Shown one piece after another: positions 12,701 to 55,398 of a stretch of 57,670 nucleotides of DNA. The notes beneath the pieces were generated by a model. It searched no databases, had not been told where the DNA came from, and saw nothing but the letters and a program-made list of their open reading frames with translations. Made by a program: the position numbers and the translations under genes. The stretch comes from a virus (lineage: Duplodnaviria > Caudoviricetes). The stretch spans positions 1 to 57,670 of IMG/VR virus record IMGVR_UViG_3300030330_001991, one strand, 5' to 3'. Position 1 is the stretch's first letter, and each line of letters starts with the position of its first letter.

Positions 12701-15700
12701 GGTTATTTTAATTTACCTAAATATGGTTTTAAAGAAATAAATGTTGGTAACGAAACTGTTGATTGGGAAAGAACAGCTGTATTAAACTGGGGAGAGCTTG
12801 ATGTAGGTAGTGGAAGTTGTAATAGCACTAGTCGTTCTGGTGACTGGGCAGGATTTGAAGGTGGTAGTGGTAAGGCTTCAGAGCATTTTTTCAAAACAAT
12901 TTCTGGTTGGGTTAATAATTGTGGTAATGATACTTGTGCCGCTAGAGACCACACTCAATCTTGGATGCAAAGATCTGAAGGTTTATTTTTTATAGATGCT
13001 ATGTGGACTAGAGGTACAAGATCTAATTGTTCTACTGGTAATTGTTGTCTTAGAAACAAATCTTGTTTTAATCATTCTAGAGGTAACGGTATATCTAACA
13101 ATAACTTAAGAATGGATCTTGGTTATTTACACAAAGGTGATTGGGAATGGAAAAGAGAAGAGGATGAAGAGTTTATTGCAAAGTTTCGATCCGCAGGTAC
13201 CACGTTTAGATTTAGAGAAGATCCAGATAAAATAGTTTACGTTATTACTGGTAGTTATTATAATCCTGATAATAGTTTTTATGGTCAGCATCATACTTGG
13301 CATAGAAGCTCAAACAAAGGTAATGGTAATAACTTAAGTAGATGGAGAATAGATTTTGAAAGAGCTGACATGCCTGGTGTAGGTTTAGGTTCTGGCCCTT
13401 CAGGTTACCATCCTATAGGTCCTAAGTCAACAACTGATGATCCTAGTGTTGCTGAGCTTGGGTTCTACGGTGGTAGAAGAGGTTCTACTACTTGGAAAGT
13501 TGGTCATAACGATGGTGATGATACTAGTTTAAAAGTACCAGCTCCAGACGGAATGACAGATGCTGCTGGTAATCCTGTATCTTCTATGACCTCGGGTTCT
13601 ACATCATACATAGATTCAGAAGGTAATACTGTTTCAGGTTTAACGCAGGCTAAATACTATAGAGTGCACACGGCTAAATATCACCATATAGAAATAGTTG
13701 AACCTATGGAAGATGAGGATGGTGATTGGAGTTCTAAAAATCCTGCTGTATGGGAAACAGAACCAAAAGAAGATGTTGGTATGGATATATACTACGAGGC
13801 ATCACCAGCTCTACCTATAAACATAAACGCAATGACCAACGAGCTGTTTGCTCCTTATGGTTCTATCGTACAAAGAGATTATGATCCTAAATTTCCACCT
13901 GGGGTAAAAGTTCATAGCTGGAGTGACAATAAAGTTACATTAACAAGTGACGACCCTGCTTTTACAGGTGTTCAGCTTGTTCAAGGTGATAGAATAAGGT
14001 TTACTAGACCAGATGGTTTTACAAGCATGGCTACTTGTGATTCACCGGCTGCTTGGCCAGCTTTTTCTTCGCCGGTAATTTCTTTTACAATTAGAGCTTT
14101 TGACCAAGCTCCACACCCATTGTCTAATCATTATTCTGACGCTCCTCATAATCAACCAGCTATACTTTCTTTTTATAATGCTTTTACTTGGGGTAACGGT
14201 ATAGAGTCAGATAGAATAAGAGATGACTTTAATCAAGTAACATTAACAAATGGTGTTAAAGCCTCGACAGTAATGGCAACGCCTTATAAAGAAGAAAGAA
14301 GAAAAACAGGTTTAATACACTCTGGTATATATAACTCTACAAGTGGTGTTAATTCTTTAAACCAATTTTTAACTGCAGAAAAAATAACTAAAGACATGAA
14401 TCCTACTTATGGTAGTATTCAAAAGCTTTACACTAGAGATGGAGATATAGTTTGTTTTCATGAAGACAAAGTAATGAAAGTGTTAGCTAATAAAGATGCT
14501 TTATTTAACGCTGACGGTAATAAAAACGTAGCTATATCATCTAACTTTTTAGGCACAGATACTCCTTTTGCTACTAGATATGGTATATCAACAAATCCAG
14601 AATCTTTTGCTACTGATCTAACCGGTAGAGTTTATTTCTCAGATAGGTCAAGAAGTGCTATATGTAGGCTTTCTGCTAGTGGTATTGATAACATATCTGA
14701 TTACGGTATGAAAGATTGGTTTGACGACCATTTAAATTCACATACAACAAAAATATTAGGTTCGTTTGATGAAAAGAAAGGATTGTACAATATAACTATA
14801 CATGGTAAAGTTCAAGATGCTATTTCTGATAAAGATGAGCAACCAAAAGAATTAGATTCAGGTCCATGTGTTTGTGATCCAAAAGAAGGAAGAGATGGTT
14901 CTAATTTAAACGATTTTAAATTAACATTAAGTTTTAGTGAGAACAGTAAAGGTTGGACATCTTTTAAATCTTTTCTACCTGAAGATGGATTAAGTATAAA
15001 TAATGAATATTATACTTTTAAAAATGGTAACTTATATAAACATCATTCGAATAAAACAAGAAATAATTTCTACGGAGAACAGTTTGACTCTAGCATGACT
15101 GTTGTTTTTAACGACGATCCTGCCGCTGTTAAAAGTTTTACAACTTTAAATTATGAAGGTTCTCAAGCTAGAATAACAAAATCATTAAATGATAGGTTAT
15201 ATTCAAACTTAAATGACAAAAACGGTTGGTATGTAGAAAGTATGAAAACTGATTTACAAGACTGTGCAGAAATAGAGTTTACAAATAAAGAAGGTAAATG
15301 GTTTAGTTATTTAAAAGGAACGTCTACTACTTTAGAAAATTTAGATGAAACAGAGTTTTCTGTACAAGGTATTGGTATTGTTAAGAAAGTTGATGGCGAA
15401 GGAGTGTCAAATACACATTGTTTAACAATAGAACCTAATATACTTTGTAATCAAATACTAGGTTGTACAGACCCATCTGCTTTAAATTACGATCCAAACG
15501 CAAATATTGATGATGGAACATGTGTGTTTCCACCTCCTATAGTTGAAGGTTGTACAGATCCTAAAGCTAGTAACTATAATCCTAATGCTAACGCTGACGA
15601 TGGCTCGTGTATTTTCCCGGGTTGTACTGATCCACAAGCATTAAACTATGATCCAGGTGCAAATCAAGATGATGGTTCTTGTGTTTACGAGGTTGTTATA

Positions 15701-16882
15701 GATGGTTGTATGGATCCAAACGCAACTAATTACGATCCTAACGCTGGAAATGATGATGGTTCTTGTACTTACGCTGGTTGTACAGATCCAAACGCCCTTA
15801 ATTACGTTGGCACAACGACACACTCTATAACTGGTCAAGTTTACAATATAACTATTGATGACGGCAGTTGTAATTTAGAACCTCCTACTTATGGTGAGTT
15901 TTGTGATTCTATAGATGCAAATTTACCTACTGGTACTATTCCAATTGTAGCTGACGCTAGCGGTGTTAATGGAGAACCTTGGAATGGAGCTTATCCTTGT
16001 GTCTCAAACCCAGGTAACGCAGATTATACACACTGGGTTTATCCAGCTGAGATACTATCATCGCATCCAGATTTTGGATATCAAACGGAGAAAAATTGGT
16101 TTACTACGACTTTTTATACTAACACAAACCCTAATATCACTGTAAATCCTGGGTTTGCTGTTAAAACAAATGTAATGACCTCCGCTTTTAGTAATCATTA
16201 TGACGATTGGAATAATGTTTGTAATGGAAATGATGGTCAAGATTCTTCTCAAAAAGTAGATTATTGGTATTTAGAGGTAAGATCCAATGAATCAATGTAT
16301 CCACACAACAACACTTATACAGAATCTTTCTTAGAGGCAATAGCAAATCAATCTGGTTTTACTAACCAAGGTGTAACACCTAAATTAGCAGGTATTAGTT
16401 GGGGCTATTCGCACTCTTCGTGGACTACCCATCACGCTAACTTATCTTGGAACTCATCTAACTCTCAATACGTATCCCTAGACAGAGGATGGGCGTTACT
16501 TCAATTTGATACTTATGAAAATTTAATTAATTTTCTAAATGCAATGAGAGACGATAGTAACAACCCAGTTTTTAACACTAGTTTTAATTTAAACACAAGT
16601 ATTGTAGATGTTTATAATGCGTCTTCTCAAGTAGTTGGACCTTACAACGATATTTTGTCTATAGGAAATGGTAGAAGATGGTTGTGGCCACAGTTAAGAA
16701 CCTGCTCAACAACGCAAGGTTTGTTGATGAGTGGACAGACTGGTCACTCGTGGCAAGACCCTCTTACTGCTTGGTCTGCTAATGGTTTTGGTGGGACACC
16801 TTTTAACGGGTCTGGAAATGGAAACCATCCAACAAACTTCCATCCATATAATAAAAACTCTAGTGGAACTAGTTTACCTTAA
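9719..16882 (+). CDS. Large tail stabilisation/nozzle-like protein with C-terminal GCTD repeats
   Basis: 2387 aa. N-terminal MNKDMDER..GEYRDALN, beta-rich body, FAYRYKYEDGE motif; five GCxDP..NY..DDGSC repeats precede a distinct C-terminal domain. Confidence 0.65.
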   Translation: MPQINKGFAPTPKMNKDMDERVVRSGEYRDALNIQVTSSDGSDVGSAQSLLGNTLISTGIVPLGSTCVGSIAHNKEDKIYYFVAGPSYEEKDSLNTGCWKDYIIEYDIKTEVFKYVFVDIYRAHFKTSAVNNGGDIQLNLSSPISSIRRDMQVNGYDIANNHVIKTNETQLTEVVSAQNNIVKIYNSKVDFTTSPPINPGTLLQFTSQPILKFHHHANTKNLITGINIIDGMLFWTDNFSEPKKINIERSIAGTGGTTDLPGPNNIVFNGDNPNYHTRLCITPDNNSELTVKTRKGTYPTGTPWYTKEENATVIKKGPLKPPRLVMSQNEDDRDGAPTYAETDGTINNIAGPPSTTGNSFAYIVPNTSPATSAIKNEGGELTNVYVATAVDWRVDDLIIFSQDENANSAEGFTDHDVRAVVTSAPSGAATGPFDFRIESINIEKIDEEQKVWKLRLEQRRPLFEYKFVRFAYRYKYEDGEFSTFSPFSEPAFLAGEFDYLPVKGYNLGMTNRLRQLIIKDYIPEDMPKDVIQVDILYKDESSPNIYTVESILSTDGWTVKDELIWPDKIGFEANNPGLTSSTIVSGPDASRGEYKITSELIHKTLPSNQLLRQWDNVPRKALAQEISGNRLVFGNYVQNFNMTHSSLSQEIKPEIGVSLSAKDAPLNAPEGTSDEPLNGEDTTTGNVLPGKTCRSLRTYQVGVVYGDEYGRETPVIAGKSGTGSITIPIDNSSTINKLRVDIGTRAPDFAKYYKFFVKETSNEYYNLAMDRWYDAEDGNIWLSFASADRNKVDEETHIILKKKHNAHIPVTDPARYKILAIENSAPDFIKTNIKSLGNGNNDGNNSIGTSGMGFPLVDYDQMWIAAGAGGVDQWYNQSPTELLPKINDGELYMRVRSNTIKSNWYQITKLKIQNSYLKFKSDKAFGEDVSFTSSDGTFNSRINGLKIELAVFHVENKKEFEGRFFVKIYKDLVLLQNLIRTEASDYKVLQATRLGYFNLPKYGFKEINVGNETVDWERTAVLNWGELDVGSGSCNSTSRSGDWAGFEGGSGKASEHFFKTISGWVNNCGNDTCAARDHTQSWMQRSEGLFFIDAMWTRGTRSNCSTGNCCLRNKSCFNHSRGNGISNNNLRMDLGYLHKGDWEWKREEDEEFIAKFRSAGTTFRFREDPDKIVYVITGSYYNPDNSFYGQHHTWHRSSNKGNGNNLSRWRIDFERADMPGVGLGSGPSGYHPIGPKSTTDDPSVAELGFYGGRRGSTTWKVGHNDGDDTSLKVPAPDGMTDAAGNPVSSMTSGSTSYIDSEGNTVSGLTQAKYYRVHTAKYHHIEIVEPMEDEDGDWSSKNPAVWETEPKEDVGMDIYYEASPALPININAMTNELFAPYGSIVQRDYDPKFPPGVKVHSWSDNKVTLTSDDPAFTGVQLVQGDRIRFTRPDGFTSMATCDSPAAWPAFSSPVISFTIRAFDQAPHPLSNHYSDAPHNQPAILSFYNAFTWGNGIESDRIRDDFNQVTLTNGVKASTVMATPYKEERRKTGLIHSGIYNSTSGVNSLNQFLTAEKITKDMNPTYGSIQKLYTRDGDIVCFHEDKVMKVLANKDALFNADGNKNVAISSNFLGTDTPFATRYGISTNPESFATDLTGRVYFSDRSRSAICRLSASGIDNISDYGMKDWFDDHLNSHTTKILGSFDEKKGLYNITIHGKVQDAISDKDEQPKELDSGPCVCDPKEGRDGSNLNDFKLTLSFSENSKGWTSFKSFLPEDGLSINNEYYTFKNGNLYKHHSNKTRNNFYGEQFDSSMTVVFNDDPAAVKSFTTLNYEGSQARITKSLNDRLYSNLNDKNGWYVESMKTDLQDCAEIEFTNKEGKWFSYLKGTSTTLENLDETEFSVQGIGIVKKVDGEGVSNTHCLTIEPNILCNQILGCTDPSALNYDPNANIDDGTCVFPPPIVEGCTDPKASNYNPNANADDGSCIFPGCTDPQALNYDPGANQDDGSCVYEVVIDGCMDPNATNYDPNAGNDDGSCTYAGCTDPNALNYVGTTTHSITGQVYNITIDDGSCNLEPPTYGEFCDSIDANLPTGTIPIVADASGVNGEPWNGAYPCVSNPGNADYTHWVYPAEILSSHPDFGYQTEKNWFTTTFYTNTNPNITVNPGFAVKTNVMTSAFSNHYDDWNNVCNGNDGQDSSQKVDYWYLEVRSNESMYPHNNTYTESFLEAIANQSGFTNQGVTPKLAGISWGYSHSSWTTHHANLSWNSSNSQYVSLDRGWALLQFDTYENLINFLNAMRDDSNNPVFNTSFNLNTSIVDVYNASSQVVGPYNDILSIGNGRRWLWPQLRTCSTTQGLLMSGQTGHSWQDPLTAWSANGFGGTPFNGSGNGNHPTNFHPYNKNSSGTSLP
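15461..15871 (+). repeat. Five coding GC(T/M)DPxAxNYxPxAxxDDG(S/T)C repeats
   Basis: Read directly from the translation; the fifth copy has an insertion. Confidence 0.9.
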
Positions 16883-21327: not shown

Positions 21328-22782
21328 ATGGCAGAAGACACAAGCGCTGGTACTGGCGGAAACAATAGTTTTTATAATATCGGTTACCAAACAACTAAAT
21401 CAGAATTACAAGCTGATAAAACTAATTTTAGTGGCCTAGATATTGCTTATCAAGCATTACAAAATAGACAAAACGCTATTTTAGCTGAAATAAAAGAAGA
21501 AGAAAAAATAAAAACAGATGGTAGAGTTGCGAAAGGAAAAGAACTAGAAGCTGTTATATCAGAACTAGATGCTACCATGACTAGCTTAGGTCCTGAATCT
21601 TTTGCCCAAGCACAAAGAGAAGTTGAGGATTTAAGAAATAGAATGTATGAAGCTATAGATAATGACGATCAAAAAACTATAGCAGAGCTAAATATAGAAT
21701 TAAAAAATATAAAACAAAGACACTCAGCTGATGCTGAAAATCTTACAATGACTATAGACAACTGGAATAATGGTTTAGTAAGTACATCAGCTATGACTGA
21801 CGATGCTATTGATACATACACTAGTTTTGCACATGCTAAAAAGAGCGGAACAGCTAAAGAAATATATGAAGGAAACCCACCAGTGTTACATTATCAATTT
21901 CCAAAAGTAGATGAAAGCAACCAACCTATACCTCAATTAGATCCGTTTGGAGAGCCAATGATTGGTGAGGACGGAAACCCTGTTTATGAGATGCATAAGT
22001 ATACATTAGAAGATTTGGAAGATTTAGCAGTGCCTATTGACACTGAAGGTGGCGAGGCTTATGTTGATTATGTAGAGGCTCAATCTAAAGTTTTTAACGA
22101 ATCAGGTAATCCACCTACAGACTACGCTATAAAACAGCAAATAGAAAAAATAATACCTAAAGACGAAAAGAAAATAAGAGACTGGTTATGGGGTGATCCT
22201 GCTCAAACAGGTAAACTAGATGTTCAAGGTTATTTATTTGATATATTAGATGGTACACATAAGATATCTCCAGAAAACGAGTATGACTTATATAAAAAGT
22301 TAGGTGTGCCTGAAATAGGTGAGCCAGATGGTGTTTACGACGAAACTGAACTTCAAGCTATGGACAAAGCGGCAATAGTTAAGTCTATAATGGAAGTCGA
22401 TGACTTAAACACTTCTTATCAAGTAATTACAGAAATATACACTGATATAGCTAAAAATAATATTAGTGGTAATGAAGATTTAAACAAAGACTACAATAAA
22501 GAAAAAACAACATCTTTAACTAACAATGTAAATCTTGAAGAAACAGAGCAGTTAAAAAGAGATAGAATTTTAGCCTTGTATAAGGATTTAGAAGCAAATC
22601 CAGATAAATATCGTGGTTATACTAAGAAAAAACTTGCTCAAGAGTTTGATTTAACAGAAGCTGATCTAGCTGGTGTTACAACTGGAGAAGGTAATATGAT
22701 AAATCTTGATTCTATATTATCTAATCCTATAGAAAAGAAAACTCAGATGACTAATCAGGAATTTTATAATATGATAGAATAA
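21328..22782 (+). CDS. Internal virion/ejection protein, putative
   Basis: 484 aa, acidic and helical, between the pilot-like gene and the giant gene. Confidence 0.5.
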   Translation: MAEDTSAGTGGNNSFYNIGYQTTKSELQADKTNFSGLDIAYQALQNRQNAILAEIKEEEKIKTDGRVAKGKELEAVISELDATMTSLGPESFAQAQREVEDLRNRMYEAIDNDDQKTIAELNIELKNIKQRHSADAENLTMTIDNWNNGLVSTSAMTDDAIDTYTSFAHAKKSGTAKEIYEGNPPVLHYQFPKVDESNQPIPQLDPFGEPMIGEDGNPVYEMHKYTLEDLEDLAVPIDTEGGEAYVDYVEAQSKVFNESGNPPTDYAIKQQIEKIIPKDEKKIRDWLWGDPAQTGKLDVQGYLFDILDGTHKISPENEYDLYKKLGVPEIGEPDGVYDETELQAMDKAAIVKSIMEVDDLNTSYQVITEIYTDIAKNNISGNEDLNKDYNKEKTTSLTNNVNLEETEQLKRDRILALYKDLEANPDKYRGYTKKKLAQEFDLTEADLAGVTTGEGNMINLDSILSNPIEKKTQMTNQEFYNMIE

Positions 22783-22783: not shown

Positions 22784-25700
22784 ATGCCAGATATTAAAGA
22801 GGTTATAGATATGATGGTAGCAGCTGGTAAAACAGATGCTGATATTATATCTGTTATAGAAAAATATAATGCTAAGCAAGCAAAAGCTAGAGCCGTAGAG
22901 CAAGCCAAGTTAGCTGAACAACAAAGGTTAAGAGAAGAAGGTACAGATGATCCTAGCGCTCCTAACGCTGGTGGTAGCTGGGGTAGAGCAAATCAAGAAA
23001 CTGGAGAGGTTGTAAGTAACATAGATATTAACGATCCTGATTTACCTCCTGGATATTATTTTTATGATGACGGTGAGGAGAGGTTTGCTGAAGATGGTAG
23101 CATGATACGTTTTGATTTTCAATATGACGGTGAAGATAGATCTGGATTTGATTTAATATACAACAAAGAAAGTGTTACTAAAGAAAAAGAAAGAATTAGA
23201 AAACAAGAAATATTTGAAGAAGAAAAGTACGATGCTATGGTTGCAGCCGGTGATAATTGGACTGAAAACGCTGAGCAAAAATGGTTGAGAGAAAACTATC
23301 CTGAAAAAGCTGAAAAAACTAATTCTGAAATAGTATCACAAACACGTAATAATGCTGATGGTTATCATTTTAGATCTGGAGAAGCTGAAACAATAAAATT
23401 TCTTAAACAAGACTTTGGTAAAAACTCTAAGTTTTATAAAGAAACAGGTTTAGAGTTTTCTTTTTCACATGGTTTTACTGGTGGTAGTGGTAAGTTTTCT
23501 TATGATGATGATTATATAATTGTTACAGCACCTAATGGTAAAGAAAAAAAGTTTGAAACTGATTTTGATAGAGAAAGTGGTAAAGGTTTAAAGCAATGGA
23601 ATGACTTTAAAAAATGGGCAGCTGAAAATGCTTATAAGGACGAAGGTATGACTACAAAGACTGGTAATAAAGTCAACATAAGTGATGCTACAAAAATGAA
23701 TGAAGAAGATTTTATAAAAGAGTTTAATCACTCTGGAGCAATTATAACCTCTAGTGAAGATGCTGTCCCAGGTTTTAGTGCTGTTACAGTAAAATTACCA
23801 GGTGCTGGTCCAAATGGTACTACAAAAGAATTAAAAATATCATTACAACCTTGGACTCATAGCGGTGAAATGGAAGCTAGAGATCAAATATTAGAGTTGC
23901 AAGCGTATCAAAATAAAACTAAAAAAAATAAAAACGCCCCTCTATTAGAAGCTTTAACAACTGATGATGAGGCTCTTTATTATACAACTGGTGACTTTGG
24001 ACAATTATCTAACGAGCAGATAAATGCAATGAAGTCAGCTAACATAACGGTTTCTAAAACAGGCAAAACACAAGGTGTAGATGTAGATAGTTTTTGGAAT
24101 ATAAGTTTTGATGGAAAAAGAGACGCTGTTGAATATACATTTAAACAAAATGGTAAAAATGTATATACCGGTACAGTTTATGGTTTTAGAGATTTTGTAG
24201 CATCTGGAAATATTAGTTTAAAACCAGAAGAGATAGACGCTTTAAAAACAAAAATACTTGGTTATGAAAATGAAGTTAAAAAAAGCGCTAAAAATATATC
24301 AGATAAAAAAATAGCAGCATTAACAAAAGATGATGTACTTGATAATTATTATGACAAAAAATTAATTACAGACATTGTTGCTAATTCTAATATTCCTGAA
24401 GACGATTTAAACAACGCTCTTCAAGATTATTTTATGCAAATTACTAAAGCTGGAAAAAGACCTACTATTAGTGATAAAAAAAAGAGAATAGCAGACTTTA
24501 GCGCTATAGATTTTTTAGAATATTATCATGGTTGGTTAACAGTTAGAGCTACCTCAACAGGAGGTACAGGTGAATACGCAATTAGCGGGGACATGTATGA
24601 GGCACCAACAGAAACAAAAGAAGAGTTTGTTAGAAAATACAATGCAGATATAGAAAAAGCTTGGTCTAGCATATATAAAGAACCAGTAGTTAACGAAGAA
24701 GGTGATATTATATCCCAAGGTTTAGATGTTACTTTGGCTAATCACAGACTTACTATGAATGATAATATTCGTAAGTCAGATATAAGAGCTGAGTTAGAAA
24801 ATGATACTGGTTTAAGAACTATTGTTTCTTCTAGCCGACTCATGCAAAGACAAGATTTAGAAGAAAAAACAAAACAGCAAGAGGAGTTAGTTAAAAGTTA
24901 CACAAGAAAATTAGAGAACGAAAAATTTAAAATTGAATACGAGCTTAATTCTATAGTGGATTCAGCTCAAAAAGAAGGAGTTACAAGTGTTAAGTATATT
25001 GATAATGGTAACGGTGTAGATGGCTATTATCTTGTTGAAGCTCAAGACGAAAATATTAGAAAAAAATATCAAGCTAAGTTTGACAACGCTTTGAAAAGAA
25101 GTAGAGCTATAAGCTCACAATGGGAGGAAGAAAGAAAAGATTTAGTGTTAGAAAGTGATGAGTTAGATGCGTTATTAAACGAGTTTCAAGGAGATGAGTA
25201 CGTAACAAAAGCGTCTTCAATGGAGTATAACCTAAGAGAGGTGTTAGCACAAGATGTTATGCATAGTTTTGAAAACTTATTCTTGGATGTGCCTGTGTTG
25301 TTTGGTAGTGATTCAGCTCTTAGAAGAAAAAATAATAACATACAAAGTAGTCAACTTTACCTACCTGATAAAGGAACTTATAGTGATGCTTGGGATGAAG
25401 GTAATTTTGGTACATACGCATTAAGAACTGTTGCTCAGCAATCAGCACCTGTTGTTACAGCTATAGCTGGTTCATATGGGGCCACAGCTATTTTAGGTGC
25501 AACTAGAGGTGCTACTATAGCAACCAACGCTATACCTGCTTTTTACGGTGTTACAGCCGCTGGTGGTAAACGTGGTGAAATAGAAACGGCTAATGAAAGA
25601 GCTATACAAGCTACGAAAGATATCGAGATATTAGAAAAAAATAAAGATTTAATTGATCCAGATGTTTACAAAGAGTCAATGGCTGCTTTGCGAGCGGTTG

Positions 25701-28700
25701 AAGCAGATGGTAATATTAACGGCTGGAAGAAATGGTTAACTATAGTTGGTAGCGGTATTATAGAAGGCACGGTAACTAGATACCTTGGTACTTTACCAAA
25801 CTCTTTAAAATTAGTAAAAGATTTTACCTCGCCGTTAGATGATATTATAATGGCAGGCGCTAGAAACGGCTGGCAAAATGCTGGTCACGCTGCTCTAAGA
25901 TTAGGAGGGAGAACTCTTAGTGAGGTAGCTGAAGAAGTTACAATAGCAGGTGGAACAATGGGGTTAGAAGCGTTAACACTAGGTAAAGACTTTGAGTGGG
26001 ACACATTAGATGATGTAGCTATAGATGCTATAATGGTTGCTGGACCTATGAACGGAACAGGTGTTATGTACTCTTCTGTTTTACAGCACTACGCTAGTAG
26101 ACCTATGTTTGAAAAAAACATGTCTATCAAAAGAGAGCTTCAAAGAAACAAAGATGAACTTGGCAAGACAAATGACAAAAGAAAACGTGCCATGTTAATG
26201 GAAGAACGAGAAGGTTTGATAAACCAAATGTATGCTCTTAGTAGTGAAATGGAGTTAATGGCAATGCAAAATGGCGGTAAAAGAAATGCTGATTTAATGC
26301 GTGTTGGAAACGAGCTAAGAGAACTAGATAAACAAGCTGGTGTAGACCCTACACTAAGCCCTGATTCAAAAGAAAAAATGTTAGCGGATTATATAACAAA
26401 ACTAGAGTCAGAAAACCCATCTAAAGCTAAAAAGTTTAAAGAGCAATACGACTCAGCTTTAAAATTTAAAGAGAAACTTTTAAGCAACATTGACTTTGAC
26501 ACTGTTATAGAAGAGGTATATGGGCCTGAAGGTGCTCGTATAAAAGCTAGGTTAATAAAACAAAACCCAAGTTTAAGAAAGCTAGACAACAAGGAAATGG
26601 CTATTGCAGTTCATGAAGAATTTAAAAGACAAAACCAACAAAAAATAGTACAAGCTACTAGAACTGCTTATGATGGTAAAATACTAGAAGCTGTTGAAAA
26701 GCAAGTTTATAATGGTAAAACTTTCAAAGAGTCTGGTAGAAAAAATAGAAACAGAAAAGCAGAAGATGAAATACTGGCTGTTTATGGTCAACAACTAGGA
26801 ATACAAAGCACTAACACTGGTATAATAATAAACAGAGATCAAAGTATAAATGCTAGAAGCGTACTAAGTGATAAGCGTTTACAAGACATACAGTCTGTTC
26901 AAGCAACTACAGACGAACAACTACAAGAAACATTATTACAGTTTCAAGATAATATACTAGCTCAGGAAATAGAAAGAATAAATAGAAGTAAACTTACAGA
27001 GAATCAAAAGAGAGATGAAATAGATAAAATACAGGCTGATATAAACCAAGAGTCAGAAATGCTCTTAGATGAGCTTAGAATGGGTGAGACAAACGCTGTA
27101 ATATTGCGTAACGGAAAATATATTGTAAGAGACAAAAAAGCAGCTGACGCAGCACTAAAAGATGGTAATTTACTAGCAGGTACAGCATTGTCACACGAGA
27201 TAATGCATGCTATTGATCAAAAGGTTTTTGATGGTCTTGGAGATATGACTAGTTACGCTGTAAATCTTTTTGATTACATGCAAAAAAATATTCCTGAAGT
27301 TCACCAAAACGCTTTAAATTTACAAAGAGCTATAGGTAATTTTAATCCAGATGTTTCTATGGCAGAGCAATCGTCTTTGTTTTGGGACGAGTACACCAAG
27401 TCTGTACAGGATTTTCTTAGTAGACCTAAGTACTCTGCGGATGTAAGACGTATATTACAAAGAGGACAAAGCACTAGAAATAAGCTTAGAGCTATGTTTG
27501 GTGGAGATTATAAAATAAACAACAGTACAGACGCTGCTGTTTATTTAGCTGGATATATAGATGCTTTCAAACGTGGTGAGCTTGGTAGTTTTCAAAAAAG
27601 AAAAATAGATGCTTTAGCTAAAAAAGAAAAGAAAGCTAAATTAAAAGAAGCTAGAAAATCAGCTAATATAAAATCACCTATATTATATAAACAAGCAAAT
27701 GCTCTTGGTAAAAAAGTAAACGATTTATACGCTACAAAAGATTCTAATCCTGATTTTGCTTTTGATATAGCTAAGTTATACGAACCTATGCTAGGTAGAT
27801 ATTTAACTAGAATAGAAGATAAAGGAGCTATATTAGGAAAACAAGATGAAACAGGTAGAGTAAGCCAAGATGAAAGATCAAAAAACATAACCGATTTTAA
27901 AATGAACGGTATGTATGGTGAAAGAGGTATTGTAGATCTTATAGATAAGTTTAATCCAGATGAAATGGTAGATGTTGTTGATCCTTCTACAGGTGAAACA
28001 GTACAAGAGGCAAACACATTGTCTAGATATTTAAACGGTACTTTTCCACAAAGAATATCTGAGTTTACAAAAAATACAACTATAGATTTTCAAGGATTTA
28101 AAGTAGATATGTCTAAAGCAGAAAATGTTTTAACAACAGAAACTGAAGACAGTACAAACGACATATTAACACCTGAAGTACAAGATCAACTTAATACTCC
28201 TTTTTTAAATAACATCGAGTTAACTAAAGAACAAGTTAAAGCTGCTAGAGAAATTATAACAAGTGTAGTTGGTAGAAAATTACCAGCTTTAGATGCTAAT
28301 GTTTCTAAAAATAAATCAGTGTCTCCTTTAATAGCTGCGTTGAAAAAAGAATTTGGAATAAAAAATGGGCCATTACATAGAATGATACAAAGTGTTATTG
28401 GTTCTAGTAAAGCTGAGGTTGAAGCTTATTTAAAATCACCAAGAAATAAAAACGCAATACTACAAACTTTAACAACAACTTGGTTGTCTAGAAACTTACC
28501 TATGGCTGTTGAGAAGTATGTTAATGGAATTGGTTATACAACAGATCATGTAGGTAGAAAGAAAGGTACTAAGGATGGTGATATACAAGCGTGGAAAGCA
28601 AGCGAAGAAGGTCCTTACAAAGGTATGACCGATGGTAAACAAAAAATTAGAAGAAACCCTAACGCAAATAAAGATGTTTCTAATGCAATGTTATTAAGTA

Positions 28701-31700
28701 ACTTTGCTAAAGGAGACAAAATGACAGACATAAGAAGAGCTGGTTTAGAAAAACTAGAACTAGCATTAGCTCAAGAGTTTGGTATGGAGATATTTAAAGC
28801 TGACATGATAAATGATGGTCCGCTAAAAGAGTTATTTGTAGGTAGACAGGATCTGTTTAATAGAGTATTAGCTGATAATTTTGTAGAAGAGTTTGTAAGA
28901 CAAACAGAAAGAGGTGTTACTAAGAGAAGTAAAAACCCTAGTTTTTTTACACCTATAAATGCTGATGATAAAAATGCTTTAGCTGTAGTTGAAGCAGAGG
29001 GTTATTCTTTAATAGCTGATATAATAAAAAACTTTGATAAAAAAAGAGAGTTTGGTGGTGCTGATGCTGTTTTAGGTTTGTATCCTATTGAAACTATAGA
29101 GTGGTTTTTAGATGCTGGTGGTTTTGATTTGTTTGATAGCAATGTAGAAAACGGTTTTGTTGTGCCAACTAAAAGTATGAACTGGGGTATATTTGATAAA
29201 CAAAAACAAGTATACTTAAATAACGGTACACAGAGTAAAGTTATGAAAGATGCTATGAGAGATGTAGGTTCTTCTATGATAGATATTTTACCTCCTCAAG
29301 TATTAAAAGGTTTATCAAAAGAATTTTTTGGTCTAGTTAGTTCTAGACTTTTAGATGGAGCAGTAAAAGAAGATGGCAGCGTTGGCCCTTATTACGATTT
29401 ACGTGTTAAGTTTGAACAAGCGCAAGCAAAGCCAAATACAAAAGTTAAACTACCATTTGATCCTACAAAGTTAGAATTATTAAATTCTAGCAGTGGTTTG
29501 ATGAAGTCTATAAGTAATATATTAAACAAAGATATATCAAGAGCAGAAAAACTAGAACAGTTAAAAAAATTACAACCTAGAATAGATGCGGCTAATGCTA
29601 ATAACAAACTTTTCTTAAAATACTTTTTTAGCGAAGCAGCTAAAATGCTAGTTAAAAATCCTCAAAACGCAGTTGGTTTAGCATCATTATTACAAGGCGC
29701 AACTAACAATGTTAAAGGTTTTAGAGCGTTTACAGATCTTGGTATGATAAAAGTTTTAGATGGTTCTCAGGCTCCTTTTGTAAAACCAAACGGAACGTAC
29801 ACAACAGTTAAGCCAAATGAAACAAACGGTCATAAAGTAAATAAAAAGCATCCTGATTATAAAAGAGCTATGAAGGAGGCTAATAACAACGAAAAAGTTG
29901 CTGGTGATATATTAGGTTACAAAGGAGAACATATAGACCCTAGCGCTAATGTAATGCAAAAACTTCTTAGGTCTACATTTGAATTAGCTGAGTTAATAAA
30001 TAACAATCCTACTAAAGCTGAAAAAGCTATAATGGAGCATCAAAAAAAGTTTGATGATATACTTTTAAATTTTGATCAATCTTTAGGTACAAAAGTAGAC
30101 TCTGACTTACAAGATGCTAGATTAACATCTACAAGTAACATTGGTTATTTTAGAAACATTGTTATAGAGTCAGAGTTAAAAAACTATATAAATGCTAAAA
30201 ACGGAGAAACTGTTCAAAGCCTTGTAAAAGAAAAAGGTATGGCTATGTTAAACATGGCACCAATAGAAGAGGTTTTAAAAGCGGAAAGAATAGATGATGC
30301 TGTTACTATGGCAAGAAGATCTGCAAACCCTAGTAAAGGTATAACTATTTTAGATTTTGACGACACGTTAGCCACTAGTAAATCTGAGGTTATATCCACA
30401 TCACCAGATGGTGTTGTTAGAAAACTAACAGCAGAAGAGTTTGCTAATGAAGGTGCTGAATTATTAGAGCAAGGCTGGAAACATGACTTCTCAGAGTTTA
30501 ATAAGGTTATAGGTGGTAAAGTAGCTAGACTTTTTAATAAAGCATTAAAATTACAAAGTAAGTTTGGCCCTGAAAATATGTTCGTTTTAACAGCTAGACC
30601 TCCTGCTTCTCAAAACTCTATATTTGAGTTTTTAAAAGCTAATGGCTTAAATATACCTTTAAAAAATATTACTGGCTTAGGTAATAGTACTAGTGAAGCT
30701 AAAGCGTTGTGGGTTGCTGATAAAGTGGCTGAGGGATATAACGACTTTTATTTTGCTGACGATGCTTTACAAAACGTACAAGCTGTACAAAACATGCTTG
30801 ATCAATTTGATGTTAAGTCTAAAGTACAACAAGCAAAAAGATCTGTAGACCCTAGTAAAGTGTTTAACGATATAATAGAAATGACTACAGGTATTGAATC
30901 TGAAAAACAATTTTCTGATGCACAAGCTAAAATTAGAGGTCATAAAACTAAATACAAATCTATAATACCAGCGTCAGCACAAGATTTTATGGGGCTGTTA
31001 TACAACTTTATAGGTAAAGGTAAAGTAGGAGAAACCCAAATGCAGTTTTTAAAAGAAAAGCTAGTAGATCCTTTTGCTAGAGGTATAAATGATTTAAACT
31101 CTTCTAAACAAACATCTGCTAACGATTATAAAAATTTATTAAAGCAGTTTCCTGATGTTAAAAAGAAATTAAATAAAAAAATAGAAGGTACAGAGTTTAA
31201 TAACGATCAAGCTGTTAGGGTTTATTTATGGAATAGAGCTGGTTTTGAAGTACCAGGTCTGTCTAAAAGAGATTTAAATATGTTAACTAGTGTTGTTAAC
31301 AATGACTCTCAATTAAAAAGTTTCGCAGAAGGTGTTGGTGCTATATCTAAAAAAGAAAACGGTTATTCTCAACCAGGTGATTTTTGGTTAGCAGAAAATA
31401 TAACTTCTGATTTACTTAGTGATGGTGCTATAGGTGATGCTAGATCTGAGCATTTAGCAGAGTGGATAGAAAATAAAAACATTATATTTAGCCCAGAAAA
31501 CATGAACAAAATAGAGGCTATATATGGTTCTAAGTTTAGAGAAGCTTTAGAGGATATGCTTTACCGTATGGAAACTGGTAGAAATAGACCAATGGGTGGT
31601 GGTAGGTTAATGAATATGTATATGAACTGGGTTAACAACTCTGTTGGTGCTATCATGTTCTTTAATATGAGATCTGCTTTACTTCAAACTATATCCGCTA

Positions 31701-33130
31701 TAAACTTTGTTAATTGGTCTGACAATAACCCAGCTAAGGCAGCTGCTGCGTTTGCTAATCAACCACAGTATTGGAAGGATTTTGCATTTTTATTTAACTC
31801 TGATTATTTAAAACAAAGACGTTCTGGTAATCAAAGAGGTATAAACGAAGCTGAACTTTCAGCTGCTGTTGCTGGAGCTGAAAACAAGGCTAAAGCAGCT
31901 ATAGCTTGGTTGCTTAAAAAAGGTTTTTTACCTACTCAATTAGCAGATAGTTTTGCTATTGCAGCTGGTGGTGCTACTTTTTATAGAAACAGAATTAAAA
32001 AGTATTTAAAAGAAGGCATGACGCAAGAACAAGCTGAAAAACAAGCTTTTTTAGATTTCCAAGAAACATCAGAAGTAGCTCAGCAGTCAGCTAGACCTGA
32101 CATGATATCTCAACAACAAGCATCTCCATTAGGTAGGTTAATATTATCTTTCCAAAACACACCTATGCAGTACGCTAGAATAATAAATAAGGCAGCTAGA
32201 GACTTAGCAAATGGTAGAGGTGATTTTAAAACACATGTCTCTAAGATAGTTTATTATGGTGTTGCTCAAGGAATATTATTTGGAGCTTTACAGTCAGCAT
32301 TGTTCGCGGTGATAGGAGACGAAGAAGAAGAAGAATACGATAAAAAGAAAGAAAGAATATTAAATCAAATGCTTGATTCTTTGTTGTCAGGTATAGGTTA
32401 TGGTGGTAAAGCTATAAGTACAGTTAAGAACACTATACAAGAGTATATGAAACAACAAAGTAAAGAGTGGGGAGCTGATCACACTTATACAATACTATCT
32501 TTGCTTGGTTTTTCTCCACCTATTGGTTCTAAGTTACGTAAGATATACTCTTCAATACAAACACAAAAATACAACAAAGGTGTAAGTGAAAAACGAGGTT
32601 TTACATTAGACAATCCAACGTGGAATGTTATAGGTAATGTTATAGAAGGCTTTACAAACATACCTCTTGGAAGGCTTGCTAACAAAATGCTTAACATAGA
32701 TAACGCTTTAGACTCTAATCATGAATGGTGGCAAAGAGCGGCTTTACTTTTAGGTTGGAACACTTGGGATTTAGGCATTAAAGATCCAGATATAATACAA
32801 GCAAAAGAAGAGGTAAAAGAAGAGAAGAGAGAAAAGAAAAAGCAAGAAAATAAAATAAAAAAAGAAAAGAAAAAACAAGAAGAAGAAAGAAAAAACCAAG
32901 CTGAGATAAATAAAAACAAAAGTAAAAATGATGGTAGATGCGCGGCTATAAATAGACATGGTGAAAGATGTAAAAATAAAGCTATTAACGGAGGTTTTTG
33001 TACTATTCACGAGAAAAAGGAAAAAAGAAGTGATGGTGTAAAACTTCAATGTAAAAAAATTAAATCAGATGGTAAACGTTGTAAAATGAAAACATCAAAC
33101 AAATCTGGTTTATGTTACTACCATGATTAG
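22784..33130 (+). CDS. Giant polyvalent internal-virion protein (HExxH protease, sigma region-2-like module, HAD phosphatase, CCCH fingers)
   Basis: 3448 aa. HEIMH at 27194-27208; DFDDT (30353-30367)...TARP...FADD HAD motifs; two C-x9-C-x9/10-C-x2-H units at the C-terminus; third and largest gene of the ejection-type cluster. Confidence 0.7.
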   Translation: MPDIKEVIDMMVAAGKTDADIISVIEKYNAKQAKARAVEQAKLAEQQRLREEGTDDPSAPNAGGSWGRANQETGEVVSNIDINDPDLPPGYYFYDDGEERFAEDGSMIRFDFQYDGEDRSGFDLIYNKESVTKEKERIRKQEIFEEEKYDAMVAAGDNWTENAEQKWLRENYPEKAEKTNSEIVSQTRNNADGYHFRSGEAETIKFLKQDFGKNSKFYKETGLEFSFSHGFTGGSGKFSYDDDYIIVTAPNGKEKKFETDFDRESGKGLKQWNDFKKWAAENAYKDEGMTTKTGNKVNISDATKMNEEDFIKEFNHSGAIITSSEDAVPGFSAVTVKLPGAGPNGTTKELKISLQPWTHSGEMEARDQILELQAYQNKTKKNKNAPLLEALTTDDEALYYTTGDFGQLSNEQINAMKSANITVSKTGKTQGVDVDSFWNISFDGKRDAVEYTFKQNGKNVYTGTVYGFRDFVASGNISLKPEEIDALKTKILGYENEVKKSAKNISDKKIAALTKDDVLDNYYDKKLITDIVANSNIPEDDLNNALQDYFMQITKAGKRPTISDKKKRIADFSAIDFLEYYHGWLTVRATSTGGTGEYAISGDMYEAPTETKEEFVRKYNADIEKAWSSIYKEPVVNEEGDIISQGLDVTLANHRLTMNDNIRKSDIRAELENDTGLRTIVSSSRLMQRQDLEEKTKQQEELVKSYTRKLENEKFKIEYELNSIVDSAQKEGVTSVKYIDNGNGVDGYYLVEAQDENIRKKYQAKFDNALKRSRAISSQWEEERKDLVLESDELDALLNEFQGDEYVTKASSMEYNLREVLAQDVMHSFENLFLDVPVLFGSDSALRRKNNNIQSSQLYLPDKGTYSDAWDEGNFGTYALRTVAQQSAPVVTAIAGSYGATAILGATRGATIATNAIPAFYGVTAAGGKRGEIETANERAIQATKDIEILEKNKDLIDPDVYKESMAALRAVEADGNINGWKKWLTIVGSGIIEGTVTRYLGTLPNSLKLVKDFTSPLDDIIMAGARNGWQNAGHAALRLGGRTLSEVAEEVTIAGGTMGLEALTLGKDFEWDTLDDVAIDAIMVAGPMNGTGVMYSSVLQHYASRPMFEKNMSIKRELQRNKDELGKTNDKRKRAMLMEEREGLINQMYALSSEMELMAMQNGGKRNADLMRVGNELRELDKQAGVDPTLSPDSKEKMLADYITKLESENPSKAKKFKEQYDSALKFKEKLLSNIDFDTVIEEVYGPEGARIKARLIKQNPSLRKLDNKEMAIAVHEEFKRQNQQKIVQATRTAYDGKILEAVEKQVYNGKTFKESGRKNRNRKAEDEILAVYGQQLGIQSTNTGIIINRDQSINARSVLSDKRLQDIQSVQATTDEQLQETLLQFQDNILAQEIERINRSKLTENQKRDEIDKIQADINQESEMLLDELRMGETNAVILRNGKYIVRDKKAADAALKDGNLLAGTALSHEIMHAIDQKVFDGLGDMTSYAVNLFDYMQKNIPEVHQNALNLQRAIGNFNPDVSMAEQSSLFWDEYTKSVQDFLSRPKYSADVRRILQRGQSTRNKLRAMFGGDYKINNSTDAAVYLAGYIDAFKRGELGSFQKRKIDALAKKEKKAKLKEARKSANIKSPILYKQANALGKKVNDLYATKDSNPDFAFDIAKLYEPMLGRYLTRIEDKGAILGKQDETGRVSQDERSKNITDFKMNGMYGERGIVDLIDKFNPDEMVDVVDPSTGETVQEANTLSRYLNGTFPQRISEFTKNTTIDFQGFKVDMSKAENVLTTETEDSTNDILTPEVQDQLNTPFLNNIELTKEQVKAAREIITSVVGRKLPALDANVSKNKSVSPLIAALKKEFGIKNGPLHRMIQSVIGSSKAEVEAYLKSPRNKNAILQTLTTTWLSRNLPMAVEKYVNGIGYTTDHVGRKKGTKDGDIQAWKASEEGPYKGMTDGKQKIRRNPNANKDVSNAMLLSNFAKGDKMTDIRRAGLEKLELALAQEFGMEIFKADMINDGPLKELFVGRQDLFNRVLADNFVEEFVRQTERGVTKRSKNPSFFTPINADDKNALAVVEAEGYSLIADIIKNFDKKREFGGADAVLGLYPIETIEWFLDAGGFDLFDSNVENGFVVPTKSMNWGIFDKQKQVYLNNGTQSKVMKDAMRDVGSSMIDILPPQVLKGLSKEFFGLVSSRLLDGAVKEDGSVGPYYDLRVKFEQAQAKPNTKVKLPFDPTKLELLNSSSGLMKSISNILNKDISRAEKLEQLKKLQPRIDAANANNKLFLKYFFSEAAKMLVKNPQNAVGLASLLQGATNNVKGFRAFTDLGMIKVLDGSQAPFVKPNGTYTTVKPNETNGHKVNKKHPDYKRAMKEANNNEKVAGDILGYKGEHIDPSANVMQKLLRSTFELAELINNNPTKAEKAIMEHQKKFDDILLNFDQSLGTKVDSDLQDARLTSTSNIGYFRNIVIESELKNYINAKNGETVQSLVKEKGMAMLNMAPIEEVLKAERIDDAVTMARRSANPSKGITILDFDDTLATSKSEVISTSPDGVVRKLTAEEFANEGAELLEQGWKHDFSEFNKVIGGKVARLFNKALKLQSKFGPENMFVLTARPPASQNSIFEFLKANGLNIPLKNITGLGNSTSEAKALWVADKVAEGYNDFYFADDALQNVQAVQNMLDQFDVKSKVQQAKRSVDPSKVFNDIIEMTTGIESEKQFSDAQAKIRGHKTKYKSIIPASAQDFMGLLYNFIGKGKVGETQMQFLKEKLVDPFARGINDLNSSKQTSANDYKNLLKQFPDVKKKLNKKIEGTEFNNDQAVRVYLWNRAGFEVPGLSKRDLNMLTSVVNNDSQLKSFAEGVGAISKKENGYSQPGDFWLAENITSDLLSDGAIGDARSEHLAEWIENKNIIFSPENMNKIEAIYGSKFREALEDMLYRMETGRNRPMGGGRLMNMYMNWVNNSVGAIMFFNMRSALLQTISAINFVNWSDNNPAKAAAAFANQPQYWKDFAFLFNSDYLKQRRSGNQRGINEAELSAAVAGAENKAKAAIAWLLKKGFLPTQLADSFAIAAGGATFYRNRIKKYLKEGMTQEQAEKQAFLDFQETSEVAQQSARPDMISQQQASPLGRLILSFQNTPMQYARIINKAARDLANGRGDFKTHVSKIVYYGVAQGILFGALQSALFAVIGDEEEEEYDKKKERILNQMLDSLLSGIGYGGKAISTVKNTIQEYMKQQSKEWGADHTYTILSLLGFSPPIGSKLRKIYSSIQTQKYNKGVSEKRGFTLDNPTWNVIGNVIEGFTNIPLGRLANKMLNIDNALDSNHEWWQRAALLLGWNTWDLGIKDPDIIQAKEEVKEEKREKKKQENKIKKEKKKQEEERKNQAEINKNKSKNDGRCAAINRHGERCKNKAINGGFCTIHEKKEKRSDGVKLQCKKIKSDGKRCKMKTSNKSGLCYYHD

Positions 33131-45220: not shown

Positions 45221-45255
45221 TATATTATCTGTTATCGTTCGTATTTGGTTTGTAA
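45221..45255 (-). promoter_or_regulatory. Class I phage promoter candidate
   Basis: Minus strand TTACAAACC-AAATACGA-N8-AGATAATATA, ending 3 nt before the ATG at 45217. Confidence 0.7.
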
Positions 45256-49014: not shown

Positions 49015-49776
49015 CTACAGATAATCAATTACTTGTGAGTGATCCACGTTATCTATTAATTTATCTACAGCTTGCTTTTTTAACTGTGAAACACGTACGT
49101 AAGCACCACTGCCTTCGATACCTAGATATTTAGCTATTTCTTTAGCGGAGTGTTTATCACAATCAAGCCCATAACTTAATCTCAACACATGAAACTCTTT
49201 ATCATTTAAGTGTTGTTTAAGTAACGAGGTTAAATACATATTTAAAAATTCTTGATTATATGGTTCTGACTTGTCTTCAATTTGTAAAAACAAATCATCA
49301 TCATCTCTAGTACCTGCATCAATACTTAAAAATATACTGTTAAAAAACATAGCTACAGCCATTTTATCTTTACCAAAGTTTTTACGTATTTCATTTGTTA
49401 CATGTTCAGGTAAACGCATTTGACCTCTATTTTTATCTATAGCTCTACGTATACCTCCTTTTATTCTTTTAGATAAAAACGATTTCATAGTTTTTTCTTG
49501 GTCTTCAGAATCTTCTATTGTTTTCCAATCTATACGATCAACTGCTTTGATTAAATTTAAATGACCTTCTTGTATCATATCTGTGATAGCCATAACACCT
49601 GAAGCTTGTTGTGATGTAGCAAATTTTCTAGCTAAATTTTCTACAAGTGGCATAAATAGTGTTATCAACGTATTTCTATCATATAAAGAATAATGTTCTT
49701 TTCTTTTTATTCTTTTTATAGTTTGTTCTAAATCGTTCTTATATCTAATATAGTTTTGAATATTATAATGTTTCAT
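49015..49776 (-). CDS. RNA polymerase sigma-70 family factor
   Basis: Region 2 LVENLARKF...DMIQEGHLNLIKAVDRID...IRRAI...RLPEH; region 4 HTH EIAKYLGI...VRVSQLKKQAVDKL. Confidence 0.9.
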   Translation of the reverse strand: MKHYNIQNYIRYKNDLEQTIKRIKRKEHYSLYDRNTLITLFMPLVENLARKFATSQQASGVMAITDMIQEGHLNLIKAVDRIDWKTIEDSEDQEKTMKSFLSKRIKGGIRRAIDKNRGQMRLPEHVTNEIRKNFGKDKMAVAMFFNSIFLSIDAGTRDDDDLFLQIEDKSEPYNQEFLNMYLTSLLKQHLNDKEFHVLRLSYGLDCDKHSAKEIAKYLGIEGSGAYVRVSQLKKQAVDKLIDNVDHSQVIDYL

Positions 49777-51967: not shown

Positions 51968-52308
51968 TTGTTATACTTTTTTAATATTTTATTTACTTCG
52001 TCCATTCTGTTTTTAATGATAGCACACTTTTCGTACTCTTCATCGTCTTGGTATATATTTAATAGTGTCATAAGCTTTGCAGCTTCACCAAGAGCGTTAT
52101 ATTCTTCTGACACTTCTAGATCTTCGTAAGCTACAGACCAAGATAAATTTGATTTGCTTACATGGTGAAACCAATCTTCCATAGATTTAAGCTTAACCAT
52201 GCGGCTTACAATTTTGATAGCCAACGCGTTAAGCTCAGCATCATTTGGTTTTAATTCTTTCAATACCTCTAGTATTTGTTTATTTGTTACACGTTTATTA
52301 TCCGTCAT
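51964..52308 (-). CDS. Hypothetical protein with UVR-like C-terminal helix
   Basis: EEYEKCAIIKNRM motif. Confidence 0.55.
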   Translation of the reverse strand: MTDNKRVTNKQILEVLKELKPNDAELNALAIKIVSRMVKLKSMEDWFHHVSKSNLSWSVAYEDLEVSEEYNALGEAAKLMTLLNIYQDDEEYEKCAIIKNRMDEVNKILKKYNK

Positions 52309-52328
52309 AGTTCGTATTTGTTTTGTAT
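52294..52328 (-). promoter_or_regulatory. Class I phage promoter candidate
   Basis: Minus strand ATACAAAAC-AAATACGA-N8-GGATAATAAA at a gene junction. Confidence 0.6.
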
Positions 52329-53349: not shown

Positions 53350-53350
53350 A

Positions 53351-53749: not shown

Positions 53750-53774
53750 ATTATTTAATTTTATTGTTTATATT

Positions 53775-53809
53775 TATATTATCCTACTTTATTCGTATTT
53801 AGTTTGTAA
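53775..53809 (-). promoter_or_regulatory. Class I phage promoter candidate
   Basis: Minus strand TTACAAACT-AAATACGA-N8-GGATAATATA. Confidence 0.75.
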
Positions 53810-54541: not shown

Positions 54542-54553
54542 ATTATTATTTAT

Positions 54554-54784: not shown

Positions 54785-54799
54785 AGTTATTATTTTTTA

Positions 54800-54949: not shown

Positions 54950-54960
54950 ATTTTATTATT

Positions 54961-55394: not shown

Positions 55395-55398
55395 TTTA

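Follow-up and report, generated by a model that had tools for sequence, protein, structure and literature searches.

The subject of this analysis is a stretch resembling domain 2 of the sigma-70 factors (the sigma2-like module, or simply the module), which lies inside a giant open reading frame (ORF) of a phage genome. The window, meaning the whole stretch of DNA that was analysed, is the entire IMG/VR record IMGVR_UViG_3300030330_001991 (57,670 bases, of the linear class, estimated to be 92% complete, with a GC content of about 33%). On the plus strand, from position 1 to 40.3 kb, it carries a structural and lysis operon with a terminase (phrog_6681), a portal (phrog_6547), several families labelled 'virion structural protein', an endolysin, an ORF of 2387 amino acids (aa) and tail-fibre-like genes. 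The minus strand, from 40.5 to 57.6 kb, holds genes for nucleotide metabolism and replication, a stand-alone sigma gene and small ORFs of early type. Among 50,697 phage records we found 87 relatives of the portal, each at less than 60% identity, which are assigned to Flavobacterium (68), Cellulophaga (15), Tenacibaculum (2) and Maribacter (1), with one unclassified. In view of these relatives, the Flavobacteriia host guessed in an earlier reading of this DNA (the sequence-only reading) is reasonable, and the phage is a marine podophage of the Flavobacteriia type. The giant ORF and the parts of it that are discussed here are the following:

22784-33130, plus strand: giant ORF of 3448 aa (P0001), beginning 1 nucleotide (nt) past the stop of the preceding structural-operon gene (21328-22782)
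27194-27208, plus strand: HExxH motif, aa 1471-1475, about 165 aa upstream of the module
27695-28102, plus strand: sigma-70 domain-2-like module, aa about 1638-1773, a helical bundle according to AlphaFold2 (AF2) and the VIA structure search
28208-28855, plus strand: core domain, aa about 1809-2024
30350-30373, plus strand: DxDxT-type motif, recognised by eye, which opens a HAD-phosphatase-like block
32939-33034, plus strand: match to DUF5763 in the Cys-rich C-terminus, aa 3386-3417 (E = 2.5e-5; 24.1 bits, under the 26.3-bit cut-off)

The sequence-only reading had quoted three peptides with the look of sigma region 2 from the span 27653-28921 (aa 1624-2046). All three were recovered in one frame of the giant ORF at the places it had given (27755-27811, aa 1658-1676; 27917-27964, aa 1712-1727; 28016-28057, aa 1745-1758), and the remainder of that span is the core domain. 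Two AF2 models were built, one of aa 1560-2100 from the whole-protein alignment (541 aa) and one of aa 1630-1775 alone from a separate alignment of 27 sequences; in all, 541 of the 3448 residues were folded. The larger model contains two confident modules, at aa about 1639-1769 and aa 1809-2024, joined by a disordered linker. Within it the sigma2-like module has a predicted local distance difference test score (pLDDT) of 67-87 per 10-residue block, and modelled alone it reaches a pLDDT of 80.9 with a predicted template modelling score (pTM) of 0.72. Both models show a helical bundle resembling the one, made up of regions 1.2/2.1, 2.2 and 2.3-2.4, that defines the sigma2 fold.

An exhaustive VIA search of 48,161 PDB representatives placed sigma domain-2 chains at the top for both models, so that a sigma-2-like fold, on which the sequence-only reading depended, is indeed predicted. 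With the 541-aa model, the best match was sigma32 (8hkc_E; Z = 6.1, root-mean-square deviation (rmsd) = 4.0 over 96 residues), followed by SigW (Z = 5.9) and then by pro-sigmaK, a chain of the T4 late complex, ShbA, SigA domain 2, CnrH, SigC, SigB, sigmaE region 2 and RpoS; a sigma factor is named in 18 of the 50 rows. The domain-only model gave SigB first (8x6g_H; Z = 6.2, rmsd = 3.1 over 89 residues, 17% identity), together with pro-sigmaK (Z = 6.2) and sigma32 (Z = 6.1). Here 20 of the 50 rows name a sigma factor, and five more are chains of RNA polymerase initiation complexes.

At the sequence level the signal comes from the family. Iterated hidden Markov models (HMMs) run within the giants link the window's module to compact forms of about 110 aa that read far more like sigma region 2 than the window copy does. 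The consensus of these forms starts with an acidic helix (PGF-D/E) and continues with G-G-I-L-x-L-I-x-x-Y-x-P and L-A-A-Y-I-N-x-x-L-P-x-R. Compared with them, the module of the window is extended in two places by lineage-specific insertions: aa about 1680-1694 form an additional loop, and aa about 1728-1743 a beta hairpin, which the model shows. The profile built from 20 modules picked out, as the best of 177,635 PDB sequences, the sigma N-terminal domain 8b3z_A (E = 0.064), aligned over region 2.2-2.4, and the same chain was again best for a profile of 27 modules (E = 0.32). NCBIfam models point in the same direction, seven of the 19 families matched by the 27 members being sigma models (FliA/WhiG in 3 of 27, sigma70-ECF in 2 of 27, and SigK with the best E-value of all, 8.2e-4). 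The Pfam model Sigma70_r2 recognised 1 of the 27 members (E = 0.007) and none of the 20 in the narrower set. In a six-frame search of 15 related records, this model matched inside the giant ORF in three, at the place of the module and over model positions 21-67 (per-record E = 7.9e-5, 0.004 and 0.008; the three scores, in rising order, 11.2, 12.1 and 17.9 bits, all sub-threshold). Stand-alone sigma genes were matched in two of the 15, and in the window the stand-alone gene was the only match. The curated cut-off of Sigma70_r2 (PF04542; 24 bits) was reached neither by the window copy nor by its relatives.

The alignment of 27 modules aligned by hhalign with 28 diverse stand-alone phage sigmas at a score of 34.4 (P = 1.2e-4; 71 columns, in the region-2 register), compared with 17.9 and 18.2 for reversed profiles and a maximum of 12.7 over 30 column shuffles; an alignment of 73 modules gave P = 0.0012. 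By subfamily, only the type represented by locus L027 reached such a level against the sigma profile on its own (P = 1.5e-4), the window type giving P = 0.09, and the compact module types are linked to one another at P = 3.6e-8 to 3.4e-13. Searches that started from the segment of the window were silent on sigma: there was nothing in Pfam at E <= 10, phmmer against PDB sequences at E <= 10 returned no sigma and a lone match to glutathione S-transferase (E = 1.1). The profile of the whole family, run against the PDB sequences, yielded nothing useful either. Conservation of the module is among the lowest in the giant and is the lowest in its central region. Its best-kept stretch is the turn resembling region 2.2, with the majority consensus LIxxYDP followed by L...IN..L..R, and the last helix keeps a loose pattern (an aromatic residue, I/L and N, then L/F and R) and is otherwise variable.

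The sigma2-like domain is therefore well supported. We consider it very probable that the module of this family is a genuine, albeit very remote, relative of sigma domain 2, and that the window holds a derived copy bearing insertions. The likeness to sigma region 2 claimed earlier thus stands at the level of the fold and of the family, whereas the window copy taken alone passes no significant sequence test.

The giant protein and its family

The giant ORF is flanked on the same strand by portal, structural, tail-fibre and endolysin genes. A Pfam scan of the whole protein found only DUF5763, and PHROGs gave no match. Relatives of its central region were retrieved from a set of 5.8 billion proteins, in which 41 sequences of 2163-3593 aa were found at E <= 1e-57, nearly all from marine metagenomes. 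According to precomputed Pfam annotations, these homologs carry PF19067 (in six), PF06414/PF13671 (in five), PF00959 (in one) and PF01464 (in one). We take the first to be DUF5763, the name that the Pfam scan of the giant also gave, and the others to be Zeta_toxin/AAA_33 kinase, phage lysozyme and SLT domains, respectively. A query with a single segment found no related IMG/VR loci, and an alignment query then gave 54 further ones, each with a giant ORF of 1667-3422 aa, which brings the family to at least 95 members in the sets examined. Pieces of the giant had no match in the 50,697 phage records (blastn and tblastn), and as far as these searches reach, only uncultured contigs are known to encode the family. 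Judged by the portal, the closest relative in GenBank is a freshwater phage, MW202828.1 (L060, 741-12320), which has a syntenic giant of 3859 aa annotated as 'reticulocyte binding/rhoptry protein' and containing two HExxH motifs. This protein was considered as a homolog and rejected, as it has neither the sigma2-like module nor the core domain and shows no homology to the central modules.

The HExxH motif upstream of the module is nearly invariant, its H, E and H each being kept in at least 90% of 39 aligned family members. Pfam finds no peptidase in this region; judging from the motif, it may be a candidate zincin-type self-processing peptidase. Within the central region, conservation peaks in the core domain: 39 sequences share 40 invariant columns there, with basic residues and glycines frequent among them, and the 541-aa model gives it a pLDDT of about 90. 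The core has no recognised fold: its best VIA rows are unrelated small domains (Z = 4-5.3), hhalign comparisons with sigma or with the module remain at control level (score 18.8 against sigma), and a protein-language-model atlas gave no usable match. It is present in 89 of 96 giants, and four of the seven giants that are devoid of it keep the module. The related record G043 has the module and no core anywhere in the genome, and record G039 has the core and a module undetectable by HMM. The two domains hence occur independently of each other.

Further downstream, the HAD-like block (30350-31000; aa about 2520-2740) is composed of the DxDxT motif, a hydrophobic run ending in T, a K and a DD pair, all nearly invariant in the family. 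By eye, the motif makes it look like a HAD phosphatase; Pfam gives no match for it in the protein of the window. Combined with the P-loop kinase domains (PF06414/PF13671) of the five homologs, it would form a kinase-phosphatase pair. At the very C-terminus of the giant, within its last 60 residues, two Cys-rich repeats of the DUF5763 type follow a low-complexity run rich in Lys and Glu.

Such a combination of many unrelated domains (sigma2-like, core, HAD-like and DUF5763) with an HExxH motif in one giant chain is a trait of the polyvalent phage proteins. These have been described as giant, multi-domain proteins, and it has been proposed that they accompany the DNA, are cleaved by a zincin-type peptidase and 'jump-start transcription' (Iyer, Burroughs, Anand, de Souza and Aravind 2017, PMC5512222). 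The family examined here resembles them in its near-invariant HExxH and in the lysozyme, SLT and kinase cargo of its relatives. It differs from them in that the LPD and MuF domains of that survey, which are represented in Pfam, were not found in the Pfam scan of the whole giant. Because of its place in the late structural operon, the near-invariant HExxH and the lysozyme, SLT and kinase domains of its relatives, the giant looks like an ejected polyvalent protein that is likely packaged and ejected together with the DNA. What speaks for its presence in the particle is the operon position and the lysozyme or SLT domains on two homologs.

Early promoter-like motif and stand-alone sigma gene

A promoter-like motif, AAATACGA-N8-GGATAAT, occurs in six exact copies, all on the minus strand from 52297 to 57577, where 0.00 copies were expected from 100 shuffles. 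The copies and the stand-alone sigma gene are located as follows:

45224-45246, minus strand: promoter-like motif, seventh copy (one mismatch), preceding the gene for thymidylate synthase
49015-49776, minus strand: stand-alone phage sigma gene, 253 aa (Sigma70_r4, E = 1e-5; Sigma70_r2, E = 1e-4)
52297-52319, minus strand: promoter-like motif, exact copy 1
53778-53800, minus strand: promoter-like motif, exact copy 2
54557-54579, minus strand: promoter-like motif, exact copy 3
55363-55385, minus strand: promoter-like motif, exact copy 4
56842-56864, minus strand: promoter-like motif, exact copy 5
57555-57577, minus strand: promoter-like motif, exact copy 6

When aligned, the element reads TTACAA-N5-ATACGA-N9-GATAATAT with fixed spacing, and it ends 25-50 nt before start codons. 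The consensus pattern used for Bacteroidetes sigmaA occurs twice compared with 3.4 occurrences expected, both times inside the giant ORF. The early promoter motif of non-host type proposed from the sequence alone is accordingly real (six copies against none expected) and unlike that sigmaA consensus. We searched 50 related records for ATACGA-N9-GATAAT, and 11 of these have any match. Nine of the 11 contain a one-strand cluster of 5-9 copies (the remaining two have 2 copies each), the cluster is present in six of the seven records that are at least 90% complete, and the motif written backwards gave 2 matches in all. Records bearing the element include G007, G013, G019, G025, G031, G036, G039, G041 and G043. 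The motif is thus common to phages with strongly diverged giants, in one case also with diverged replication genes, and is a hallmark of the group. Seven short contigs of a metatranscriptome (at least 99% alike, from one marine run) cover parts of 51901-56588; they were considered as evidence of promoter use and set aside, because they reveal neither starts nor strand and may stem from DNA carry-over.

The stand-alone sigma has 762 representatives at E <= 0.001 among 1.84e9 proteins. It is 61% identical between the window and record G007, and its profile detects the gene at E of about 1e-100 in 7 of the 11 records, including five of the seven near-complete ones. In all seven records that have the gene (the window and six related records), it is located downstream of the motif cluster and on the same strand; the claim that the sigma gene follows the motifs hence holds for the six copies of the window and is repeated in the six other genomes. 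When 8000 relatives of the protein were scored, the best 120 of the 8000 were 87-100% identical, and so many near-identical relatives in metagenomes suggest a very abundant marine phage lineage. Record G013 (59,026 bases; the record of locus L009) shares with the window the terminase (85% identity), the portal (66%), the giant and the promoter cluster, and no homolog of the window's primase-helicase or stand-alone sigma was detected in it. Either its replication and early module was swapped or the record was cut. A cluster without a sigma gene might have been taken as evidence that this sigma is not the reader of the motif, but this argument was dropped because the cluster runs within 2 kb of the contig end and the gene may have been cut off.

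Possible role of the module at phage entry

Phages are known to start transcription in two ways, either from promoters read by the host holoenzyme or with an injected polymerase of their own (N4, crAss-like and phiKZ-like phages). Domain 2 is the part of a sigma factor that recognises the -10 element and grips core RNA polymerase by its beta-prime clamp helices, and the sigma biology of Bacteroidota differs from that of model organisms. In the present phage group, host-type promoters are lacking and no polymerase gene was found; together with the order of the genes, this calls for a factor that acts at entry, and a sigma2-like domain within a probably ejected protein is an obvious candidate. 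The best mechanistic reading, to which we assign a probability of roughly 0.4, is that the module docks on host RNA polymerase after delivery. The giant would be packaged and ejected with the phage DNA, and the module would possibly be cut free by the giant's own HExxH peptidase after ejection. It would then dock on the host core RNA polymerase at the sigma-binding site and thereby place the host enzyme at the disposal of the incoming genome ahead of all phage gene expression. In this role it would most likely be a minimal sigma without sigma4, in the manner of T4 gp55, acting at the -10-like GATAAT block of the TTACAA-N5-ATACGA-N9-GATAAT early promoters, and the stand-alone sigma, made from the early transcripts, would take over afterwards. 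Packaging, cleavage, RNA polymerase binding and the use of early promoters by the module are all steps that we infer. A full cascade, in which the cut-out module makes the host core specific for early promoters and the resulting transcripts include the stand-alone sigma that runs the later classes, is possible but rather doubtful. A complex prediction for the module with residues 180-420 of Flavobacterium johnsoniae beta-prime, a guessed range for the clamp helices, gave no answer (score 0.00) and carries no weight here.

A number of observations weigh against this reading. Some concern the ability of the module to read a promoter: the surface of its last helix differs between phages that have the same promoter, no sigma4 was found in the giant (PF08281, Sigma70_r4_2, and PF04545, Sigma70_r4, match the stand-alone gene only), and the stand-alone sigma is as conserved across the group as the promoter, so that it could be the promoter reader instead. 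Moreover, record G043 keeps the module and the motif without the core, record G039 keeps the motif with a module undetectable by HMM, and the giant has no PHROG or proteomic label. With a conserved promoter and a conserved sigma on one side and a variable module on the other, a docking surface fits better than a sequence reader. The module may be a sigma competitor or an RNA polymerase tether, which would bind the beta-prime clamp helices and either displace the host sigmaA, as an instant shut-off, or hold the core enzyme at the DNA entry site, and the early promoters would be read by another factor, which could come from the host or be the stand-alone sigma once an initial round of expression has taken place. 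The region-2.2-like turn as the best-kept stretch and the absence of a sigma4 or any other DNA-reading partner that co-occurs consistently are in line with this. However, a competitor acting at entry would shut down early transcription of the phage as well, unless a second factor able to read the promoters were present from entry on, and none was found; nor is there a host-type promoter before the early genes, and the sigma gene lies downstream of the motif cluster wherever both are seen. We regard a role as competitor or tether as unlikely.

Other observations bear on whether the module has to do with RNA polymerase at all. No VIA match attains Z = 8, and values such as those obtained (Z <= 6.2) are common by chance among helical bundles; two TetR-type regulator domains and an SRI domain are interleaved among the sigmas at Z = 5.4-5.6. 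The Foldseek comparison suggested in the sequence-only reading returned nothing at E <= 0.001 for either model against PDB, and nothing at that level against BFVD. The best PDB row, at E = 0.36, is 9a7s_A, an integrative model titled 'RPSD-RPOB', which from the title we take to be a sigmaD model. The module copy of the window was not recognised by any sigma model at any threshold tried (Pfam, NCBIfam and six-frame), its type is only modestly linked to the L015 (P = 0.0014) and L027 (P = 0.0024) types, and identity to it is 10-27% outside the close relative L002. Across the family the mean column identity of the module is 18%, and no column reaches 90% conservation. These features, and the rank of the module as the least conserved part of the central region, would suit a structural or scaffolding bundle, either a sigma2 relic co-opted for contact with the particle or the ejection channel or a chance look-alike. 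A protein-language-model search led instead to clusters bearing LPD38, a domain of polyvalent proteins (score 0.93, with low recognition, hence a weak lead), but LPD38 (PF18857) was not found at E <= 10 in six records, where the control records were equally silent. A chance resemblance also fits poorly with the independent sequence signals: every one of them leads to sigma models with a shared register, and they are clearly separated from the reversed and shuffled controls. A bundle of this kind is improbable in our view, though less so than the remaining alternative.

This last alternative is that the module serves as the promoter-recognition part of a hidden virion RNA polymerase, residing in the giant or in the 2387-aa protein and comparable to N4 gp50 or to those of the crAss-like phages. 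The size of the giant and its position in the operon resemble those of virion polymerases, the promoter has the length, the fixed spacing and the group-wide invariance that are usual where phages use polymerases of their own, and the folded part of the giant amounts to 541 of 3448 residues. The sequence-only reading had stated that the window contains no RNA polymerase gene, and none was found, which is not proof of absence given that folded fraction. The evidence consists of the Pfam scan of the whole giant, a six-frame search with PF00940 (without a match, and silent on the control genomes too) and PDB sequence searches with the 2387-aa ORF, the segment and the family profile. Furthermore, N4 gp50 appears at a Foldseek E-value of 4.7 at best, and the rest of the giant shows HExxH and HAD-like motifs, not polymerase motifs. 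A hidden polymerase is very improbable.

If the module docks on RNA polymerase as preferred here, its nearest counterpart would be T4 gp55, likewise a sigma2-type bundle without sigma4 acting at a -10-like element alone. The fold matches of the module include chain 7d7d_F (Z = 5.1-5.5), from the gp45-dependent activation complex of T4; the structure search does not name this chain, which is presumably gp55. The likeness is one of fold and description: T4 gp55 is free-standing, is made after infection and needs gp33 and the sliding clamp, whereas the module belongs, as a single domain, to a late-operon protein of 3448 aa and would be active at entry. Free-standing phage sigmas, such as phiEco32 gp36 and the phage's own gene at 49015-49776, belong to the same superfamily, and the module aligns with their region 2 (hhalign). 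They carry regions 2 and 4, pass or come near the Pfam cut-offs and are expressed after entry; the module has no region 4 and no significant Pfam score. Virion RNA polymerases (N4 gp50, a protein of about 3500 aa, and those of crAss-like phages and of phiKZ/AR9) provide entry-time transcription delivered in the particle; here no polymerase domain was detected, and what is delivered would be a module that lends the host enzyme specificity or docks on it. The transcription cargo described for polyvalent proteins comprises an N4-type polymerase and ADP-ribosyltransferases, and the word 'sigma' occurs 0 times in the main text of that survey, whose supplements may list more domains (PMC5512222). 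A full-text literature search, which did not extend to supplements, found no report of a virion-borne sigma domain.

The sigma2-like stretch hints that the phage may take over the transcription of its host on entry in a manner not described before. If the proposal is true, an injected sigma-type module would be a cheaper third entry-time route beside host-holoenzyme promoters and virion polymerases, would account for the ability of these phages to do without host-type promoters and without a polymerase gene, and would be a strategy common to a widespread group of marine Flavobacteriia phages. Even if the module merely docked on or blocked RNA polymerase, it would be a new type of cargo for polyvalent virion proteins. 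As a small and well-delimited domain, of the length seen in the compact relatives (~110 aa), it can be tested directly against Bacteroidota RNA polymerase.

Other features of the window

The 2387-aa ORF (9719-16882, plus strand) is a second giant in the same operon. Its residues 1469-1894 match phrog_14478 ('virion structural protein'), and no PDB sequence relative was found for it. Scans of the window for tRNAs and Rfam families gave no match, which includes an unusually GC-rich stretch of 294 nt on the minus strand (53750-54043). This stretch contains no ORF and lies just upstream of one of the promoter copies, and parts of it are covered by short contigs of the marine metatranscriptome run. 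It may be a small RNA or a structured leader.

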